DNA of 61,208 nt from an uncultured Bacilli bacterium (GTDB lineage: Bacteria > Bacillota_I > Bacilli_A > RF39 > UBA660). Every line of letters starts with the position of its first letter. Positions within the stretch are counted from its first letter, which is position 1. Shown here one piece after another: positions 43,934 through 52,193 of this stretch. The position numbers and the translations under genes are program-made. The stretch spans positions 1 to 61,208 of the forward strand of contig CANQGH010000002.1 of assembly GCA_947601845.1 (NCBI GenBank), in the 5' to 3' direction. The notes beneath the pieces were generated by a model. The model saw nothing but the letters and a program-made list of their open reading frames with translations. It did no database searches and was not told the origin of the DNA.

Positions 43934-43968
43934 ATTTTTATAATATAATACAAATGAGGGGTGCTAAT

Positions 43969-45126
43969 ATGTTAACAGGGATTACCTTAAAAGATTATAC
44001 TACTTTTATTAAGGAAACAACTTTTGATTTTAAAGCCACTAATTATAAGATACTAGAAAGTACTAATGTAGGAGTAAATAGAGTTTTAAAAGGAGCATTA
44101 TTTATAGGTGAAAATGCATCTGGTAAAACACAAGTTTTAGATGCTATTATGTTATTATTAAATTTATTATTAACCAATTCTGAACAAAATTATATGGTAA
44201 AAAAATCGTTATATACTAAAGGTACTAAATTTAGTTTATCATATACCTTTAATGTTAGTAATAATGATATTAAATATGATATAACTTTTGATAAAAACAC
44301 GATAAGTTTAGAAAGACTTTATGTAAACGGTGTATTAAAACTTGATCGAGTAGGTAAAAGTGGAGAAACTAGTTTTGGGTTGGAAAAAGATGTTAAAGAT
44401 GATATTAATCCTAGTTTATCATTATTGAAATTAGAATATTACAACACCAAATTTAATAATGATCCCGTTTTAAATGACTGGTTTGACTTCTTAAAAAATT
44501 CATTATATATCAATTGCTTACTAAAAGCGTGTCAATCTTTTAATCCAGCTAAAATAAATGAACAAGCCATCATCAAATATGTAGAGAACAACGATGCGAC
44601 TAAATTAAATAAATTAATAGATAAGCTTAATTATAACAGCGAAATTGTATTTGAAGAACAAAATCCAGGTGATGGCAAAGTAGTGGGAGTTAATTCTACT
44701 AAAATGATTGGTTTAAAGAAAAAAGGAACAGATGTAGTTATACCTTTAGGACTAGAGTCAGCTGGTAATCAAGCTTTTGTTAATATTATTTTACCAATAC
44801 ATTATGCTGTTAAAAATAATTGTATGATAATTGTTGATGAATTTAGTAGTGGCCTTCATAATGAATTGGAAGAAGCTTTAATAAAATACTTTTTTAATAA
44901 TAGCAAAAATTCTCAAATATTTTTTACATCCCATTCAACTAATTTACTTGATACTGATATTTTGCGACCTGATCAAATTTACTCTTTCAAGTTTGATGCC
45001 CAAAATGGTACTTCAATAAAAAGATTCTCAGATGAAAATCCGAGAGAATCACAGAATATTGAAAAAATGTATTTAAATGGAGTCTTTGATGGAATGCCTA
45101 AATACAGCAAAGAATTTAAAGATTAA
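43969..45126 (+). CDS. ABC/AAA_21-type ATPase of a split OLD-family pair (AriA/AbiLi/RloA-like)
   Basis: Walker A GENASGKT, signature-like LESAGNQ, Walker B MIIVDEFSSGLH, H-loop FFTSHS. ATG 43969 follows SD gagggg. Confidence 0.75.
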   Translation: MLTGITLKDYTTFIKETTFDFKATNYKILESTNVGVNRVLKGALFIGENASGKTQVLDAIMLLLNLLLTNSEQNYMVKKSLYTKGTKFSLSYTFNVSNNDIKYDITFDKNTISLERLYVNGVLKLDRVGKSGETSFGLEKDVKDDINPSLSLLKLEYYNTKFNNDPVLNDWFDFLKNSLYINCLLKACQSFNPAKINEQAIIKYVENNDATKLNKLIDKLNYNSEIVFEEQNPGDGKVVGVNSTKMIGLKKKGTDVVIPLGLESAGNQAFVNIILPIHYAVKNNCMIIVDEFSSGLHNELEEALIKYFFNNSKNSQIFFTSHSTNLLDTDILRPDQIYSFKFDAQNGTSIKRFSDENPRESQNIEKMYLNGVFDGMPKYSKEFKD

Positions 45127-45835
45127 TAAAGATAAGACAATTGGTCCAGTCGTTATTGTAGTTGAAGGAGAAGAGGATGAGTTTAGATTACTAAAACATA
45201 TATTTACTACTATATTAGATTATAATTATATTACAATTAAAAGAAATAAAATTATGAAACATGAGTTTCAAAGTAAAACCAATAAAAATTGTAACGTAAT
45301 CATAGCCAATACTAAAAGTTCTAGTATTAAAACAATTACTGATGATGGTGAATTTAAAGATAAACTATATCAAATATTAAAAAAAGAATATAAAAGAAGT
45401 TTAAAAAATACTCCTATATATATTATGTGGGATAGAGATAAAGAAATAGATGAAGACAAGATAATTGATGATTATTATAGAAAAGCCATAAATACTTTTT
45501 ATAGTGCTCAGGATAATGAGTATGAGATGAATGGACTTTTACTTTTAAGTTATCCATGTCATGAAAGTTATAATTTATCTAATTTCTATAAAAGATTATG
45601 GAAAAAGACATATCATACAAGTGCTGAATGTAAGCATGAATTTAATAGTTCAATACATTATATAAAAGATATTAATGATAAGACACTTCTATTAGCAGTA
45701 GAGAATATGCATCATTCTATGATGGAATATGGAATTAGAAATTATGATCCATCTAATTTAAAAAAATTAAATAATACTATTTATAGAAAAGAAGAAGAGT
45801 GTTTTAGAAATAATAAATATTTTAGAGCTCTTTAA
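45077..45835 (+). CDS. TOPRIM-like nuclease partner (DUF4435/RloB-type; AriB/AbiLii-like)
   Basis: N-terminal beta-strand plus acidic motif VVIVVEGEEDEF, and a later WDRD acidic motif. It overlaps the ATPase gene by 38-50 nt, consistent with translational coupling. Family assignment is by motif only. Confidence 0.6.
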   Translation: MESLMECLNTAKNLKINKDKTIGPVVIVVEGEEDEFRLLKHIFTTILDYNYITIKRNKIMKHEFQSKTNKNCNVIIANTKSSSIKTITDDGEFKDKLYQILKKEYKRSLKNTPIYIMWDRDKEIDEDKIIDDYYRKAINTFYSAQDNEYEMNGLLLLSYPCHESYNLSNFYKRLWKKTYHTSAECKHEFNSSIHYIKDINDKTLLLAVENMHHSMMEYGIRNYDPSNLKKLNNTIYRKEEECFRNNKYFRAL

Positions 45836-45983: not shown

Positions 45984-47414
45984 ATGAATAAAAAATATAA
46001 AAGTATAATCTTTTCTTTTTTAAATATTGTATTTACTATGTTATTGATTGGTACTTTTTATACCTTTAATTATTATTTAGTAAACTTAGATATTATACCT
46101 TTTAAGCTATTATTTAAAGGTTATATTGCTATAGGTATATTGTTTATAGTTCTATTGATGTTTATGTATTTGTCGAAAAAAGTTTTTTTTAAAATACTAA
46201 GTTATATTCCTGTTATGATTTGTAGTTTTGCTTTTATAGTGATGACTGGATATTTACATAATACTAATTCTTTTATAGAAAATGTTAGTGTTAAAGAAGA
46301 AAAGCATTATTTAAACTATTCGGTTGTAACTTTGAAAGCAGAAAAGTATCAAAGTATTTCAGATTTGGTAAATGAAGATATTAGTTATTTTGATGATGAT
46401 TATCTTCTTAGTATTAAGAATGCATTAAATAAGTTAATTGGTTATGAAGAAGTTTTAGCATATGATATAGGGACTTTAGCTAATAGTCTATTAGATAGGG
46501 AAGTATCAGCCATATGTGTAGAAGATAGTATTTTAGAACTAATTAATGATGAAGTAGAAGACTTTCGTGATAACATTAAAGTAATTTATACTTTTAAAAT
46601 TGATTTAGATGATAATGTAGTAAATGTTTTTAGTGAAGATGATATAAAAAATGATCATTTTATTTTGTATATTAGTGGTATAGACCAATATGGTGATGTT
46701 AATAATGTTAGGGGGCGCAGTGATGTTAATATTTTAGCAATAGTTAACATGTATACTAAACACATATTATTAGTTAATACTCCAAGAGATTATTATGTTC
46801 AATTAGCAGGGACCAAAGGCTTAAAAGATAAACTTACTCATGCTGGTATTTATGGTATTGAAAAAAGTGTTAATACTTTAGAGGAGTTATATGATATCGA
46901 TATTGATTATTATTTAAAAGTTAATTTTAATACGCTTATTAATGTGGTTGATGTTATAGGAGGAGTTGATATATACTCGGATAGTGCTTTTGGTAATATA
47001 TCCAAAGGATGGAATCATTTAGATGGTAAAGGAGCTTTAGCTTATTCTAGAGAAAGGTATGCTTATATAACGGGAGATAATCATAGGGGTGCTAATCAAC
47101 AACAAGTTATTACGGCGATTATCGATAAAGTTAGTCAATCTTCAGTTTTAATAAAAAAGTATAATAGTATTTTATCGGCTCTAGATGGTAGTTTTCAAAC
47201 TAATATACCTAAATCAGTAATTACTAGTTTTATTCGCCTTCAATTAAATAATATGTCCGCATGGCAAGTAGAAAGTATGGCGGTTGTTGGTACTGACAGC
47301 ATGAATTACACTTATAGTATGGGGACAAATTATTTACTATATGTAATGGAACCCGATTTAGAAAGTGTGTCTAATGCCAAAAATAGAATTAATGATGTAT
47401 TGGTAGAAGAGTAA
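45984..47414 (+). CDS. LCP (LytR-CpsA-Psr) family glycopolymer phosphotransferase, copy 2
   Basis: Same motifs as copy 1 (RSDVNILAIVN, VNTPRDYYVQLAGT, YSRERYAYITGDNHRGANQQQV). ATG 45984 follows SD aggtga. Confidence 0.9.
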   Translation: MNKKYKSIIFSFLNIVFTMLLIGTFYTFNYYLVNLDIIPFKLLFKGYIAIGILFIVLLMFMYLSKKVFFKILSYIPVMICSFAFIVMTGYLHNTNSFIENVSVKEEKHYLNYSVVTLKAEKYQSISDLVNEDISYFDDDYLLSIKNALNKLIGYEEVLAYDIGTLANSLLDREVSAICVEDSILELINDEVEDFRDNIKVIYTFKIDLDDNVVNVFSEDDIKNDHFILYISGIDQYGDVNNVRGRSDVNILAIVNMYTKHILLVNTPRDYYVQLAGTKGLKDKLTHAGIYGIEKSVNTLEELYDIDIDYYLKVNFNTLINVVDVIGGVDIYSDSAFGNISKGWNHLDGKGALAYSRERYAYITGDNHRGANQQQVITAIIDKVSQSSVLIKKYNSILSALDGSFQTNIPKSVITSFIRLQLNNMSAWQVESMAVVGTDSMNYTYSMGTNYLLYVMEPDLESVSNAKNRINDVLVEE

Positions 47415-47459
47415 TTTTTACATCAGTGAATAGTAGTTTCATATTTAAAGTAAAAAAAT

Positions 47460-47497
47460 GCTGAATAGAAATTATCCATTTCTATTCAGCTCTTTTT
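47460..47497. terminator. Bidirectional terminator between LCP copy 2 and the toxin gene
   Basis: gctgaatagaaa (47460-47471) / tttctattcagc (47479-47490), flanked by an A7 run and tcttttt. Confidence 0.8.
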
Positions 47498-47550
47498 AAA
47501 CATTATTACTATACTATTTTCAAACACAGTAATAGATTTTATTCTAAAAA

Positions 47551-48033
47551 TCAATGCTCATTTGCCGTTTTTAATTCTTCAAGCATTTGCTTCTTGATTT
47601 TATCTATATCCGTAAAAAATAAATTGATACCACGTTTTTTTAAGTTCATTAAATCTTCAAAATTTTCTAAAATTATTTTGCTTAATTTTTCTGGCACTTT
47701 GGCAGGTTTATTATCGACTGTATGCACATGATCTATGTATTTTTCTAAAGTTGGAAAAGCATTTTGCAATAGAATAGCCGCATCATTATTGAATACTTTT
47801 TCAATTAATATTGTATTACAAAAGCCAAATTTTTCAATCTTTTTATCAACAATTTTTTTATATTTCTCGACTTTACTGCTTAGCGGAATAAACCATAATA
47901 TATCTTTGTCCTTAATAGTGAAATAGGTGGGGCGCTTTTTACCACGTTCATGATTAGTCATAAGATTTTCATCATTAACAACATCAAAAAACTCATCTTT
48001 AATATGATATAAATATCCTGTTTGTATGTTCAT
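47551..48033 (-). CDS. Type III toxin-antitoxin endoribonuclease toxin (ToxN/AbiQ/CptN-like)
   Basis: 160 aa. KKRPTYFTIKDKDILWFIPLSSKVEKYKK and AAILLQNAFP resemble the ToxN-family core. The genomic syntax (repeats, terminator, toxin) is diagnostic. Confidence 0.75.
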   Translation of the reverse strand: MNIQTGYLYHIKDEFFDVVNDENLMTNHERGKKRPTYFTIKDKDILWFIPLSSKVEKYKKIVDKKIEKFGFCNTILIEKVFNNDAAILLQNAFPTLEKYIDHVHTVDNKPAKVPEKLSKIILENFEDLMNLKKRGINLFFTDIDKIKKQMLEELKTANEH

Positions 48034-48063
48034 AATAATATCAGCTCCTAGTAATTATTATAT

Positions 48064-48103
48064 CAAAAGCAAAAAGAAAACTCTATTAGATGGTAGAGTT
48101 TTC
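48064..48103 (-). terminator. Intrinsic terminator between the antitoxin repeats and the toxin gene
   Basis: On the minus strand: gaaaactcta-ccatctaa-tagagttttc (perfect 10-bp stem), followed by tttttgctttt. Confidence 0.8.
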
Positions 48104-48210
48104 AAACATTTTCGACTGGGATTACTTATTACTCGCTAGCCACCCAGAAGCGAGAAACATTGTCGCCCAGGATTACTTATTACTCGCACCACCTGGAAGC
48201 GAGAAACATT
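48104..48210 (-). ncRNA. Type III antitoxin RNA: two tandem ~50-nt repeats plus a partial third
   Basis: Minus-strand units run 48210-48162 (49 nt) and 48161-48111 (51 nt). Both start AAUGUUUCUCGCUUC, and the motif restarts at 48110. Each unit has interleaved helices CUCGC/GCGAG and CCAGG/CCUGG (CUGGG/CCCAG in unit 2). Confidence 0.75.
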
Positions 48211-48244
48211 TACATTATTAATGCACTATTTCAAATGCAATAAT

Positions 48245-48273
48245 AATATACTATAATTTACTATAAAAGTCAA
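48245..48273 (-). promoter_or_regulatory. Promoter of the type III TA operon
   Basis: On the minus strand: TTGACT (48273-48268), 17-nt spacer, TATATT (48250-48245). Confidence 0.6.
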
Positions 48274-48489
48274 CGCTTTAACAAAGTAAATTAGCAAGTA
48301 TCACCTTGCAATAATATTATATGCAAAATTACTAACTTTATTTTGATAATATAATAGAAATGGTGATTGTTTGAATATAAAAAATTATTTATAAATGTAA
48401 TGACAAAGTAATTAATTGTCGGTTTTGTTTCCTTGACATTCAATATTTATTGTGAAACAATATTGTCTGTATTGAATGGAGAGTCTAAA

Positions 48490-49629
48490 ATGAATGATGA
48501 TTTGTTAAAGGATAGAGCATGGATAGAAATTAACTTAAGTAATCTTGAACATAATGTTAGGGAAATAGAAAGAATAATTCCTGATAAAACAAAAATCATG
48601 GCAGTTGTTAAAGCTAATGCCTATGGACATGGTATGATTACTGTAGCTAGGCATCTTAATCAAATAGGTATTACATCTTTTGCTGTCGCTACTTTACAAG
48701 AAGGTATCACTCTAAGAGAGAATAATATTACTGGTGATATTCTCATTTTAGGCTATACTAGTATTAATAATCTTGAATATGTATTAAAGTATGACTTGAT
48801 ACAGACAGTAGTAGATTTAGATTATGCCAATGAATTATTAAAGTCCTCTTATTCTAATAAAGTTAAAGTTTATTTAAAAATAAATACTGGTATGAATAGA
48901 ATTGGTATTAATTATAAAGATATTATGAATATTAAAAAATTATATACTAGTAATAAATTAAATATTTTAGGTATGTTTTCTCATTTTTGTGTTGCTGATA
49001 GTAGTAAAAAAAGTGATATAGCTTTTAGTAGCAAACAAATATCTAGATTTGATGAAGTAATCCAAGCATTAACATCTTCTAATATTGAGATTGGTAAAGT
49101 TCATTTACAAAGTAGTTATGGTATTTTAAATTATTCTAATCTTATCTATGATTATGTTCGGCCTGGTATTATTTTATATGGAGTTCACGAAGTAAAGAAC
49201 CCTTATTGTAAAACTTCTATTAATCTTAAACCCGTTTTATCTCTTAAAGCTAGAATTACTAGTATTAAAGAAATTAATAAAGGTGATTCGGTGAGTTATG
49301 GAAGAGGGTATAAAGCTTTAAAGAAAGAGACTATTGCAACGGTATCAATTGGATATGCTGACGGATTTCCTAGAAATGTTTCAGGAAAAGGTGCAAAAGT
49401 TATGGTAAATGGTCAATATGCTTATATTATTGGTAGAATTTGTATGGATCAACTTATGATCAATATTACGGATTTGGCTAATATTAAAGTAGGTGACATA
49501 GTAACTTTAATAGGTGATGATAGTGAAATATCAATTGAAGAGTTAGCATTTAAATCACAAACTATTACCCATGAATTATTATGTGGCTTAAATAATAGAT
49601 TAGGTTATGTAGTGATAGATAAAATCTAA
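48490..49629 (+). CDS. alr: Alanine racemase
   Basis: AVVKANAYGHG PLP-lysine motif and C-terminal VSYG...GYADG...MDQLM motifs. ATG 48490 follows SD ggagag. Confidence 0.9.
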   Translation: MNDDLLKDRAWIEINLSNLEHNVREIERIIPDKTKIMAVVKANAYGHGMITVARHLNQIGITSFAVATLQEGITLRENNITGDILILGYTSINNLEYVLKYDLIQTVVDLDYANELLKSSYSNKVKVYLKINTGMNRIGINYKDIMNIKKLYTSNKLNILGMFSHFCVADSSKKSDIAFSSKQISRFDEVIQALTSSNIEIGKVHLQSSYGILNYSNLIYDYVRPGIILYGVHEVKNPYCKTSINLKPVLSLKARITSIKEINKGDSVSYGRGYKALKKETIATVSIGYADGFPRNVSGKGAKVMVNGQYAYIIGRICMDQLMINITDLANIKVGDIVTLIGDDSEISIEELAFKSQTITHELLCGLNNRLGYVVIDKI

Positions 49630-50483
49630 TGATTATGTAACTTTTTATTTTAAAACCAAGCATTAACGAAAAGCAAGGAAACAAAATAGTAAATAATAAC
49701 TCGTCATATTTAATGCCTTCGACAGTATCTAATTCAACAACACCAAGAGGTCTATTAATTCTTTTCTCCTCTGATAAATATTCAATACTTCTGCCATTTA
49801 ATTGATGACCTCTAACAGTATTTCTTTTAACAGTATTTGTACCATATCTAACTCTAGAAACTTTGTTTCTTAAATCTAAATTACAACAGGCTAATAAACC
49901 TTTATCAATCCACTCATAAAAAGAAGATGGTGCAGATTTAAACATTTGATATTTTTCTGAAAGAGTATTCATAATGATTTCATGAGAAATGCCATTTTTT
50001 ATAAGTCTAGATAGATAATCTTTAAACTCTTTGGGAAAGAAATCAACTTTAGTATCAATACGAGAAACTCATTGGACAGCATTGTGCATTTCTGATATTT
50101 CAAATACAAATGACACCCATTACAAACATGGTGGTTCTTTTTTAGTAATTCACAATCAATAATCGCTTTATAATTAAGACAAACTTTAACAGCATAGAAC
50201 AATATTTACACTAAGAACATTTAACTTTATTCCTAATGGTTTCACAAAGATATTTTTGATGACAATTATTTTTATTTAAATAATTAGAATATTTTCTTTG
50301 ACTACCAAAATAAGAAGAATACTTTTTTATTCCTTTTCTAATCACAGACAGATCTTTACTTAATAACCTAGCTATATCAGCAGGAGATTTCCCTTCATTT
50401 AGATAGAATTCAATATTTCCTATTTTCAAAACAGATAAATTTTTGTTAGAATAATTACGACCCATATATATACCTCCATTCAT
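49630..50483 (-). mobile_element. Decayed, 3'-truncated IS30-family transposase gene (three frame fragments)
   Basis: 50465-50211 encodes the N-terminal HTH (GKSPADIARLLSKDLSVIRKGIKK). 50202-49999 carries VCNGC. 49972 downward gives RGHQLNGRSIEYLSEEKRINRPLGVVELDTVEG, which is the first catalytic Asp region. There are at least two frameshifts, and the rest of the DDE core is absent. Confidence 0.7.
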
Positions 50484-50665: not shown

Positions 50666-51709
50666 ATGAACGAAATAGGTAAAAATTTAAAAAGAGTAAG
50701 GCTTTTAAAAAATTTATCACTTAAAGAAGCTGGACTACTTCTTAATATGACTGCTACAGCTATTTCTAAATATGAAAAAGGAGAAATACTCCCAGATTCA
50801 AAAAAGATAATTGCCTTTGCTAATGCTTATCAAGTGAAATCAATTGATTTATTAAAGGTGTATAATGTTCCAAAAATGAAATTTACTTCTTTTAGAAAGA
50901 AAAAAAGATTAGTCGGTTGTAACTTAAAACTTTTAGAGGAATTGATTCAAAATGAAGTCGCTAAATATTTTGAAGTTATAGAATTGAACAACATAGCGTC
51001 TAACAGTATTAAATTAAAAAAATACTCATGTAATAGTATAGAAGAAGCTGAAGAGGCTGCCAACGATTTTAGAAAATTTATAAATATATCTAATAAGCAA
51101 CCCATATCAGACTTAATTAATATTCTTGAAAATCTTGGTATTGTTATAATTCAAATTCAGAATCCTAATCATCGCTTTGATGATTTTGATGGCTTGAGTG
51201 AAATTGTAGATGGTATTCCCGTTATTGTTGTACTGGATAGTATAATGGATGGAGCAAGGCAGCGTTTTACTATTGCTCATGAACTAGGTCATTTATTATT
51301 AGATATAGGCAATGAAAAATTAGATAGCGAAAAATTATGTAATAGATTTGCTAGTGCATTATTAATGCCAAAAGAGGCTGTCATAAACGAATTTGGCATA
51401 TCGAGAAAAAATATAAATTTTTTTGAATTAACAGCTTTTAAAAATGAATTTAAAGTTAGTTATGCCGCAATTGTATATAGATTGCGAGATTTAAATATTA
51501 TATCGGAATATTTATATAAAAGATTATTCATCTTTTTAAATCAAAAAATAGGGAAAAAAGATCCAAAACCTATTCCACCAGAAATATCATATCAATTTAA
51601 AAAAACAGTATTCAGGTTAGAGGCAGATGAAATAATTTCCTTAAATAAGGCCTGCGAATTATTGGGAGTTACAGTAGATGAATATAACAGCGAAGATAAT
51701 AATTACTGA
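50666..51709 (+). CDS. XRE-family HTH fused to an ImmA/IrrE (COG2856) zinc metallopeptidase
   Basis: N-terminal HTH (LKRVRLLKNLSLKEAGLLLNMTATAISKYEKGE) and HEXXH (IAHELGHLLL). Confidence 0.85.
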   Translation: MNEIGKNLKRVRLLKNLSLKEAGLLLNMTATAISKYEKGEILPDSKKIIAFANAYQVKSIDLLKVYNVPKMKFTSFRKKKRLVGCNLKLLEELIQNEVAKYFEVIELNNIASNSIKLKKYSCNSIEEAEEAANDFRKFINISNKQPISDLINILENLGIVIIQIQNPNHRFDDFDGLSEIVDGIPVIVVLDSIMDGARQRFTIAHELGHLLLDIGNEKLDSEKLCNRFASALLMPKEAVINEFGISRKNINFFELTAFKNEFKVSYAAIVYRLRDLNIISEYLYKRLFIFLNQKIGKKDPKPIPPEISYQFKKTVFRLEADEIISLNKACELLGVTVDEYNSEDNNY

Positions 51710-52193
51710 TACTAATATAATAACAGATTTAAATAGTGCCAATATACTAGAAGAGTTTGTTAATCTTGATAATGTTTATATAAGTGATATGGTTAAAAAT
51801 GATGAAATAAATGCTAAGACAGGAAATATTGAGTTAATAAATAAATTTAAAGTTATAACATCCTCTTCTACCCAATTAATAGAGGTGAGTAACTTATCTA
51901 TTGCTGAAAAAAAATTATCTCCTTATGATTTATTAAATTACGTTATAGCAAGAGATAATAATGGGATTCTTGCTACAGGCGATAATAGATTAAAAAGGTA
52001 TGCTGAAAGTAAGAAAATAGAAGTTATTAGAACATTAAAAATAATTAAATTGATGCAAGAACGTGGCGTTATTACTTGTGAAAAAGCCATAAATGCTTGT
52101 CATTTATTGAAAACTTGTCGTACAACACGTATACCAGAAGAAGATATAAACAATCTAATTGATATATTAGAAGATACTTCGGTTGCGGTTTAA
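51678..52193 (+). CDS. PIN-like nuclease domain protein (COG2405/DUF3368-like)
   Basis: N-terminus IIITDTNIITDL (PIN-type acidic strand) and a C-terminal helical tail RGVITCEKAINACHLLK. Overlaps the upstream gene by 32 nt. Assigned by pattern only. Confidence 0.5.
   Translation: MNITAKIIITDTNIITDLNSANILEEFVNLDNVYISDMVKNDEINAKTGNIELINKFKVITSSSTQLIEVSNLSIAEKKLSPYDLLNYVIARDNNGILATGDNRLKRYAESKKIEVIRTLKIIKLMQERGVITCEKAINACHLLKTCRTTRIPEEDINNLIDILEDTSVAV

Follow-up and report, generated by a model that had tools for sequence, protein, structure and literature searches.

A probable complete CptIN-family type III toxin-antitoxin locus with two non-identical pseudoknot repeats in an uncultured Bacilli bacterium

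CptIN is an already known family of toxin-antitoxin systems of type III that was defined in 2012, crystallised in 2015 and given a dedicated NCBI model. The 33 cptIN loci that have been tabulated feature repeats of 40–48 nucleotides (nt) in 1.9–3.4 copies and a toxin of ~150 amino acids (aa), all of these being descriptive ranges (PMC3401426). CptIN from E. rectale forms a heterotetrameric 2:2 protein–RNA complex (PMC4627078). The RNA in PDB 4RMO is an H-type pseudoknot that features a 6-nt 5' tail, a one-base L1 loop, a 9-nt A-rich L2 loop with an A-minor twist, and a short 3' tail that ends in the scissile A45 (PMC4627078). The sequence of the E. rectale CptI repeat, taken from the cloning primer of Rao et al. 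2015, is AAGUUUACCACUGACCGAUAUGUGGUAUAUAAAUGGUCGGGUUGA, which is 45 nt long and whose numbering fits the A29U and deltaU30 mutants (PMC4627078). The family so far has one crystal structure. The DNA analysed here is a stretch of 61,208 nt (the window) from an uncultured Bacilli bacterium (contig CANQGH010000002.1 of assembly GCA_947601845.1), and its minus-strand locus 48273..47551 is, with high confidence, a complete CptIN-family type III toxin-antitoxin system. The order of the locus is promoter, ~2.1 repeats, terminator and toxin gene, which is also the order in E. rectale CptIN, and two of the properties by which Blower et al. 2012 recognise type III loci, a terminator before the toxin gene and tandem repeats, are present. 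An earlier note, made from the letters of the DNA alone, had proposed a type III locus with this canonical order of repeats, terminator and toxin gene, and the order is indeed found.

The 160-aa protein encoded by cptN is, judged by its sequence, a CptN-family type III toxin. The protein matches the NCBIfam model NF047359, "type III toxin-antitoxin system CptIN family toxin", with 158.7 bits and an E-value of 8.7e-47, and the match covers the full 150-position profile. NF047359 is an equivalog model with a curated cut-off of 90 bits, and it is the sole NCBIfam model for which the 160-aa protein scores above the cut-off. A search of the PDB returned 4RMO chain A, "CptN Toxin", as the sole significant match (E 1e-19), in which residues 6–147 of the protein (142 residues) are aligned with residues 5–150. 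An alignment with close homologues and the 4RMO sequence determined that this full-length homologue is 38% identical to E. rectale CptN. Three experimentally validated CptN toxins are 35–44% identical to one another (PMC4627078), and membership in the CptN family is supported because 38% lies inside the range of these validated members. The profile and PDB matches show that the earlier note was right to prefer cptIN over toxIN, and the comparison with a CptN profile that it had recommended gave a match well above the cut-off.

The residues that are expected of the ribonuclease active site are present. The active site is described by Rao et al. 2015 as a Ser-[Ser/Thr]-Arg triad (PMC4627078). 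The active-site pair S52 and S53 (S51 and S52 in E. rectale) is invariant in the clade and in E. rectale CptN, and the basic residues K54 and R34 (Arg53 and Arg30 in E. rectale) are nearly invariant. Additionally, I61, I75 and L89, which are the counterparts of residues that line the pocket for U4 in the crystal, are kept.

Direct reading and Tandem Repeats Finder agree that the region upstream of cptN consists of two tandem repeats of ~50 nt and the start of a third, as the earlier note had described (Tandem Repeats Finder: 48104..48210, 2.1 copies, period ~50, 86% matches). The 61,208-nt window holds no other copy of the cptI repeat. The repeats follow the same plan as E. rectale CptI, which is 5' tail, S1, short L1, S2, S1', A-rich L2, S2' and 3' tail, and the 5' tails are similar, AUGUUU here and AAGUUU in E. 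rectale. Repeat 1 features a 5' tail that ends in ...AUGUUU, the helices S1 and S2 with an L1 of UU, a 4-nt inter-helix spacer, an 11-nt L2 and a short 3' tail. Repeat 2 differs from repeat 1 by two compensatory swaps in S2, from CCAGG/CCUGG to CUGGG/CCCAG, which had been pointed out previously and are confirmed in the sequence, and by an insertion of 2 nt between the helices, which makes its spacer 6 nt long. The comparison with E. rectale reveals several differences. The repeats here are non-identical and 49 and 51 nt long whereas those of E. rectale are two identical 45-nt units, L1 is 2 nt long instead of 1, L2 is 11 nt long instead of 9, and the inter-helix spacer here is 4–6 nt. An E. 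rectale-type locus from a gut metagenome (L131) likewise features two identical 45-nt repeats; it has no leader hairpin, and the U-run of its terminator abuts the Shine-Dalgarno site. Compared with the 33 tabulated cptIN loci, the 2.1 copies and the 160-aa toxin fit, however, the 49- and 51-nt repeats lie just above the range of 40–48 nt. CptIN of Coprococcus catus GD/7 and of Ruminococcus torques L2-14 can be likened to this locus by description, as members of the same toxin-defined family that are chromosomal, come from gut Firmicutes and have about two long repeats (Blower et al. 2012, PMC3401426).

The H-type pseudoknot that had been read from the two interleaved helices is borne out by covariation. 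A genome scan found CptN relatives in 442 species-level genomes, and the best 80 loci from these genomes were read. The 80 loci yield 98 distinct aligned repeat units, over which the ten pairs of the interleaved helices S1 and S2 were counted. Standard pairing is found in 97.8% of the 980 cells, two-sided changes occur at 8 of the 10 pairs (in 91 cells), and none of 500 shuffles matches the pairing and two-sided-change values. In a control in which the 3' partners were slid by 1–3 columns, the pairing was 25–50%. S2 is variable at all five of its pairs and is found, for example, as CCAGG/CCUGG, CUGGG/CCCAG, CCGGA/UCCGG, UCGGG/CCCGA and ACAGG/CCUGU, and S1 is variable at three pairs. The unpaired 5' tail, the UGG that follows S2 and the greater part of L2 vary little or not at all in the 98 units, and L2, UAAUAAGUAAU, is the most conserved part of the repeat RNA; this is the pattern that is expected of nucleotides that make protein contacts and tertiary contacts. 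An H-type pseudoknot with a long A/U-rich L2 is therefore strongly supported as the predicted structure of the cptI unit. In 2012 the CptI sequences were reported to be unalignable within the family (PMC3401426). The 98 varying units provide support from natural variation for the CptI pseudoknot, and they mark the nucleotides that are untouchable.

Two other accounts of the repeats were considered. A nested fold, in which the 5' strand of S1 pairs with the 3' tail and which is the minimum-free-energy fold of repeat 1, was rejected, as it has no informative covariation, fails one pair in 79 of the 98 units and breaks in the units where S1 covaries. Since the nested helix is without covariation support, the pseudoknot is the supported structure. 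The second account is that the repeats are a cis-acting leader, similar to an attenuator or a riboswitch, that controls an open reading frame (ORF) that is no toxin. Their position upstream of a terminator and an ORF is leader-like, and no Rfam family matches them; a scan of 47300..48500 at E ≤ 10 gave chance-level matches only, none of which accounts for the repeats. This account is extremely improbable, however, as the homology of the ORF extends over the full length of a toxin that was crystallised with exactly such a repeat RNA, and the tandem duplication of a pseudoknot with its unit boundaries kept is the pattern of a processing substrate, unlike the alternative hairpins of an attenuator.

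The repeat boundaries indicate where the precursor would be cut. The junctions in this locus are GUAA AUGUUU, GACA AUGUUU and GAAA AUGUUU. Both of the adenines that precede UG are unchanged in 98 of 98 units, and the positions ahead of them are variable, with A, U or G followed by A or C. E. rectale CptI is cut at ...UUGA^AAGUUU... (PMC4627078). The most likely site in the present locus is [A/C]A^AUGUUU, which would separate these invariant adenines. This register is favoured because its 6-nt 5' tail, AUGUUU, matches AAGUUU in length and in five of six bases and because the scissile A is then invariant. The processed units that are predicted from this register would be 48209..48161 and 48160..48110.

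The elements around the repeats are listed in Table 1. The promoter, the perfect 10-bp terminator, and the Shine-Dalgarno site with its 160-aa ORF had all been named in the earlier note, and each is found at the position given there, the promoter by a scan and the terminator by a scan and by folding. The sequence TTGAC[A/T]-17-TATATT recurs at the matching position in the majority of the 80 related loci. An equivalent of the partial third repeat, which here joins the terminator hairpin without a gap, is found in nearly every related locus and also in the E. rectale-type one. The terminator consists of the stem GAAAACUCUA/UAGAGUUUUC and an 8-nt loop, followed by UUUUUGCUUU. It folds with −11 kcal/mol (z = −4.55), a stability that is reached by 0 of 200 shuffles, it ends 32 nt before the ATG of cptN, and its position is kept across the related loci. 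Downstream of cptN, a 13-bp bidirectional hairpin is likely the end of the transcription unit. The upstream architecture is alike in nearly all of the 80 loci. The layout is far beyond chance because it recurs upstream of nearly every homologue in these loci and because the helices covary.

Table 1. Positions of the parts of the locus in the window.
Feature	Coordinates	Strand	Basis and remarks
Predicted antitoxin-RNA promoter, sigma-70-type	48273..48245	-	TTGACT (48273..48268)-17-TATATT (48250..48245); scan, 10/12 consensus matches
5' leader hairpin, UGCAUU/AGUGCA, 6 bp, 6-nt loop	48239..48222	-	Folding
cptI repeat 1, 49 nt, AAUGUUUCUCGCUUCCAGGUGGUGCGAGUAAUAAGUAAUCCUGGGCGAC	48210..48162	-	Sequence, Tandem Repeats Finder, covariation
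Repeat 1 S1, CUCGC/GCGAG	48203..48199 with 48187..48183	-	
Repeat 1 S2, CCAGG/CCUGG	48196..48192 with 48171..48167	-	
Repeat 1 loop L2, A/U-rich, 11 nt, UAAUAAGUAAU		-	
cptI repeat 2, 51 nt, AAUGUUUCUCGCUUCUGGGUGGCUAGCGAGUAAUAAGUAAUCCCAGUCGAA	48161..48111	-	Sequence, Tandem Repeats Finder, covariation
Repeat 2 S1, CUCGC/GCGAG	48154..48150 with 48136..48132	-	
Repeat 2 S2, CUGGG/CCCAG	48147..48143 with 48120..48116	-	
Third repeat, start only (AAUGUUU)	48110..48104	-	Sequence; gives the last predicted processing site its 3' side
Intrinsic terminator between repeats and toxin gene	48103..48076 (stem and loop); 48103..48066 (with U-run)	-	Scan
Extended -10-like motif TGATATAAT, candidate cptN promoter	48065..48057	-	Between terminator U-run and Shine-Dalgarno site
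Shine-Dalgarno site AGGAG	48049..48045	-	Sequence; GGAG kept at this place in related loci
cptN, 160-aa type III toxin, predicted endoribonuclease	48033 (ATG)..47551	-	NCBIfam NF047359, PDB 4RMO
13-bp hairpin, U-runs on both strands	47490..47460	-	Terminator scan, both strands; 60 nt past the cptN stop

Some observations count against the assignment of the locus as a complete CptIN system. The E. rectale residues that read the scissile adenine are not kept, as Asp81 is replaced by a gap or Asn and Ser85 by Ala, and Tyr104 of E. rectale is an invariant His104 in this clade. As a consequence, the cleavage site and the specificity may differ from those of E. rectale CptN, and the loss of the adenine readers suggests a different readout of the cleavage site. 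Asp81, Ser85 and Tyr104 are features of the one crystallised member and do not define the family. If the cut is placed in the 'GA^' register of E. rectale, the base before the cut varies in the related units (A, U or G). The Pfam ToxN profile (PF13958), which the earlier note had suggested as a check, gave no match at E ≤ 1, where the only hit was a spurious RTX_C at 13.5 bits, though the family assignment of the note was right. PADLOC gave no match for the toxin either, and only the CptIN model of NCBIfam and the sequence in the PDB pick up the protein. An AlphaFold2 model, built with 23 close homologues, reached a mean pLDDT of 39.5 and a pTM of 0.31; it was discarded and gives no support for the fold. 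Finally, the toxicity, RNA processing, stoichiometry and trigger of the locus are all inferred.

Nearly all of the 80 best loci among the 442 genomes come from uncultured gut Bacilli, "Tenericutes" or Erysipelotrichaceae that are represented by metagenome-assembled genomes, and Candidatus Onthousia is among them. The present analysis adds to the CptIN family an intact locus and a large clade in hundreds of genomes of uncultured gut Bacilli, and it leaves the general picture of type III systems unchanged. In published summaries the repeats of toxI and cptI are said to be nearly identical. In this clade an identical repeat pair is found in 0 of 75 loci, a count that was obtained with a rough, script-based trimming of the units. 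In 42 of the 75 loci the two repeats have different S2 helices, in each case with compensation. By these sequence comparisons, the two repeats of a locus look like maintained paralogues and not like a homogenised array. Certain S2 combinations recur over many genomes; one of these joins a repeat 1 with CUGGA to a repeat 2 with CCAGG.

Two of the related loci are damaged. In L009:2836-2932 there is a single hybrid repeat, in which the two S2 strands derive from separate units and are mismatched (CCGGG with CCCAG). In L026:2906-2965 a deletion joins repeat 2 straight to the 3' arm of the terminator, so that the last repeat boundary and half of the terminator are gone. Damaged relatives such as these, together with the truncated CptN genes that are known (PMC3401426), raise the question of whether the locus in the window is itself a decaying, non-functional remnant. 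This is very unlikely, as all of its elements are intact, including the promoter, the fully paired repeats, the terminator, the Shine-Dalgarno site and a full-length ORF with conserved active-site residues.

A mechanism can be proposed for this CptIN locus by homology with E. rectale CptIN (PDB 4RMO; PMC4627078). The promoter would give rise to a precursor of ~170 nt that mostly ends at the terminator. CptN would act as a metal-independent endoribonuclease that cleaves this precursor at every repeat boundary, and the cleavage would release two pseudoknot RNAs of ~49 and 51 nt. Each pseudoknot would bridge two CptN monomers and keep its 3' end in an active site, forming an inactive 2:2 ring, and the terminator would hold the synthesis of the toxin far below that of the antitoxin. 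If transcription stopped, through shut-off of the host by a phage or through loss of the DNA, the unstable RNA would no longer be replaced, and the freed CptN would cut cellular RNA and arrest growth.

ToxIN (Pectobacterium atrosepticum) and AbiQ (Lactococcus lactis) resemble this locus at the level of the operating principle, in which a repeat RNA is processed by the toxin into pseudoknots, a closed inhibitory ring is formed, and a terminator precedes the toxin gene. The toxin, however, belongs to another family and has no match to Pfam ToxN at E ≤ 1. ToxIN also differs in its repeats, which are 36 nt long and present in 5.5 copies, and in its 3:3 hexamer, and abortive infection has been demonstrated for ToxIN and AbiQ, unlike for CptIN. 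TenpIN, from Photorhabdus luminescens and others, is similar in its RNA, as the range of tenpI repeats (39–57 nt) covers this locus, and non-identical repeats and a conserved A-rich stretch have been reported for tenpI. The toxin of the present locus is no TenpN, however; CptIN is its sole NCBIfam match above the cut-off.

The leader hairpin begins at about the expected start of transcription, upstream of repeat 1, and its folding energy is weak by itself (z = −1.05). RNAalifold predicted no structure in the leader region, and the hairpin was then tested explicitly by pair counts. In 47 related leaders the five core pairs are 90% paired, with two-sided changes at three of the five, and in some loci the sequence at this place is unrelated and a hairpin is still formed. 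The hairpin may be a 5' stabiliser or may provide the context for the first processing site. A second additional feature follows the terminator and precedes the Shine-Dalgarno site. It has the pattern TGnTAnnnT, which 64 of 78 loci carry at 25–36 nt upstream of the ATG, compared with an expectation of ~3% from the background rate of these loci. By its motif, TGATATAAT, a perfect extended -10, may be a separate promoter for cptN. Both the leader hairpin and the extended -10-like motif set this locus apart from the E. rectale-type locus, which has no room for the latter. The loci L007, L010, L014, L020 and L031 feature a spacer between the terminator and cptN that is ~70 nt longer, with a TTGAC(G/A)...TACACT promoter-like site ~100 nt before the cptN start, in place of the extended -10-like motif, and a G-rich Shine-Dalgarno site.

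Reviews describe type III loci as being transcribed from a single promoter, and a separate toxin promoter, if true, would be a modest novelty compared with this layout. It is a tentative and rather unlikely proposal that the whole clade departs from the 'single promoter plus read-through' design by combining its own weak toxin promoter with distinct paralogous repeats and a stabilising 5' hairpin. If it does, the toxin promoter would uncouple toxin synthesis from antitoxin synthesis, the distinct repeats would allow a 2:2 complex with two different RNAs or would avoid mispairing between the repeats in the precursor, and the 5'-terminal hairpin would stabilise the precursor. Three features of the clade, namely the non-identity of its repeats, its leader hairpin and the candidate toxin promoter, would be of interest to studies of how toxin-to-antitoxin ratios get set.

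The earlier note had placed the locus next to other defence genes, and this is correct at a distance but not for the adjoining genes. The direct neighbours of cptIN are housekeeping genes, for an LCP-family protein and an alanine racemase, and the defence-like genes, for an AbiLi-like ATPase and a RosmerTA-like RmrA, are located ~2.4 kb away, one to each side. The AbiLi-like gene (43954..45835, plus strand) encodes a 390-aa ATPase (PADLOC AbiLi, E 3.6e-50; Pfam AAA_21) and is followed by an overlapping 252-aa ORF that has no Pfam or PADLOC match; the two are possibly an AbiL-like two-gene defence system. The RmrA-like gene (50666..52193, plus strand) encodes a 347-aa protein with a helix-turn-helix (HTH) domain and an M78-peptidase domain (PADLOC RmrA, the RosmerTA antitoxin, E 1e-39). 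The overlapping 171-aa ORF that follows it has a weak PIN-domain match (E 2.9e-4) that is under the Pfam cut-off, and together they may form a RosmerTA-like pair. Two short ORFs of 135 and 90 aa (49565..50483, minus strand), the second with a weak HTH_38 match, lie between the alanine racemase gene and the RmrA-like gene and look like fragments of a decayed transposase gene. Of the nine neighbour proteins in the window, none was matched within 3 kb of cptN in the 80 related loci, in a search for which the positive control worked. The defence-rich context is peculiar to this window when it is compared with those loci, 26 of which adjoin a gene for pyruvate phosphate dikinase.

This context bears on the biological role, for which defence and self-retention are considered roughly equal. 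One possible role, held here with less than even confidence, is abortive infection, in which the shut-off of host transcription by a phage would deplete CptI and free CptN. The defence-like genes within 2.4 kb on both sides fit this role, and there is precedent in the sister families, as ToxIN, AbiQ and TenpIN abort phage infection (PMC3401426). However, phage resistance has never been reported for any CptIN locus (PMC3401426, PMC4627078), the defence-rich context is absent from the 80 related loci, and the toxin does not match a PADLOC model. The other possibility, which is given similar weight, is that the same device serves mainly the selfish retention of the locus itself or the variable region around it, by addiction or post-segregational killing, with no abortive infection. 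E. rectale CptIN raised plasmid retention from ~50% to 100% and stopped 0 of more than 200 coliphages (PMC4627078), and in E. coli neither of two CptIN loci protected against six coliphages (PMC3401426). Additionally, the flanking genes are conserved in 0 of the 80 loci and many of the copies lie among housekeeping genes, which fits a small unit that inserts itself and persists. However, the phage tests with a negative outcome used E. coli and coliphages, which are far from the native hosts and, according to the authors, a poor proxy for them (PMC3401426), and both the defence-like neighbours in the window and the phage defence of the sister families speak against a mainly selfish role.

A search for CptN in phage genomes gave no match. 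As of 2012, no cptIN locus was known from a plasmid. Six plasmids carry distant CptN-like ORFs, which are 28–39% identical and are all annotated as hypothetical; their hosts are Megamonas, Clostridium perfringens, Planococcus, Peribacillus and Virgibacillus (NZ_CP048628.1, NZ_CP075965.1, NC_019558.1 and others).

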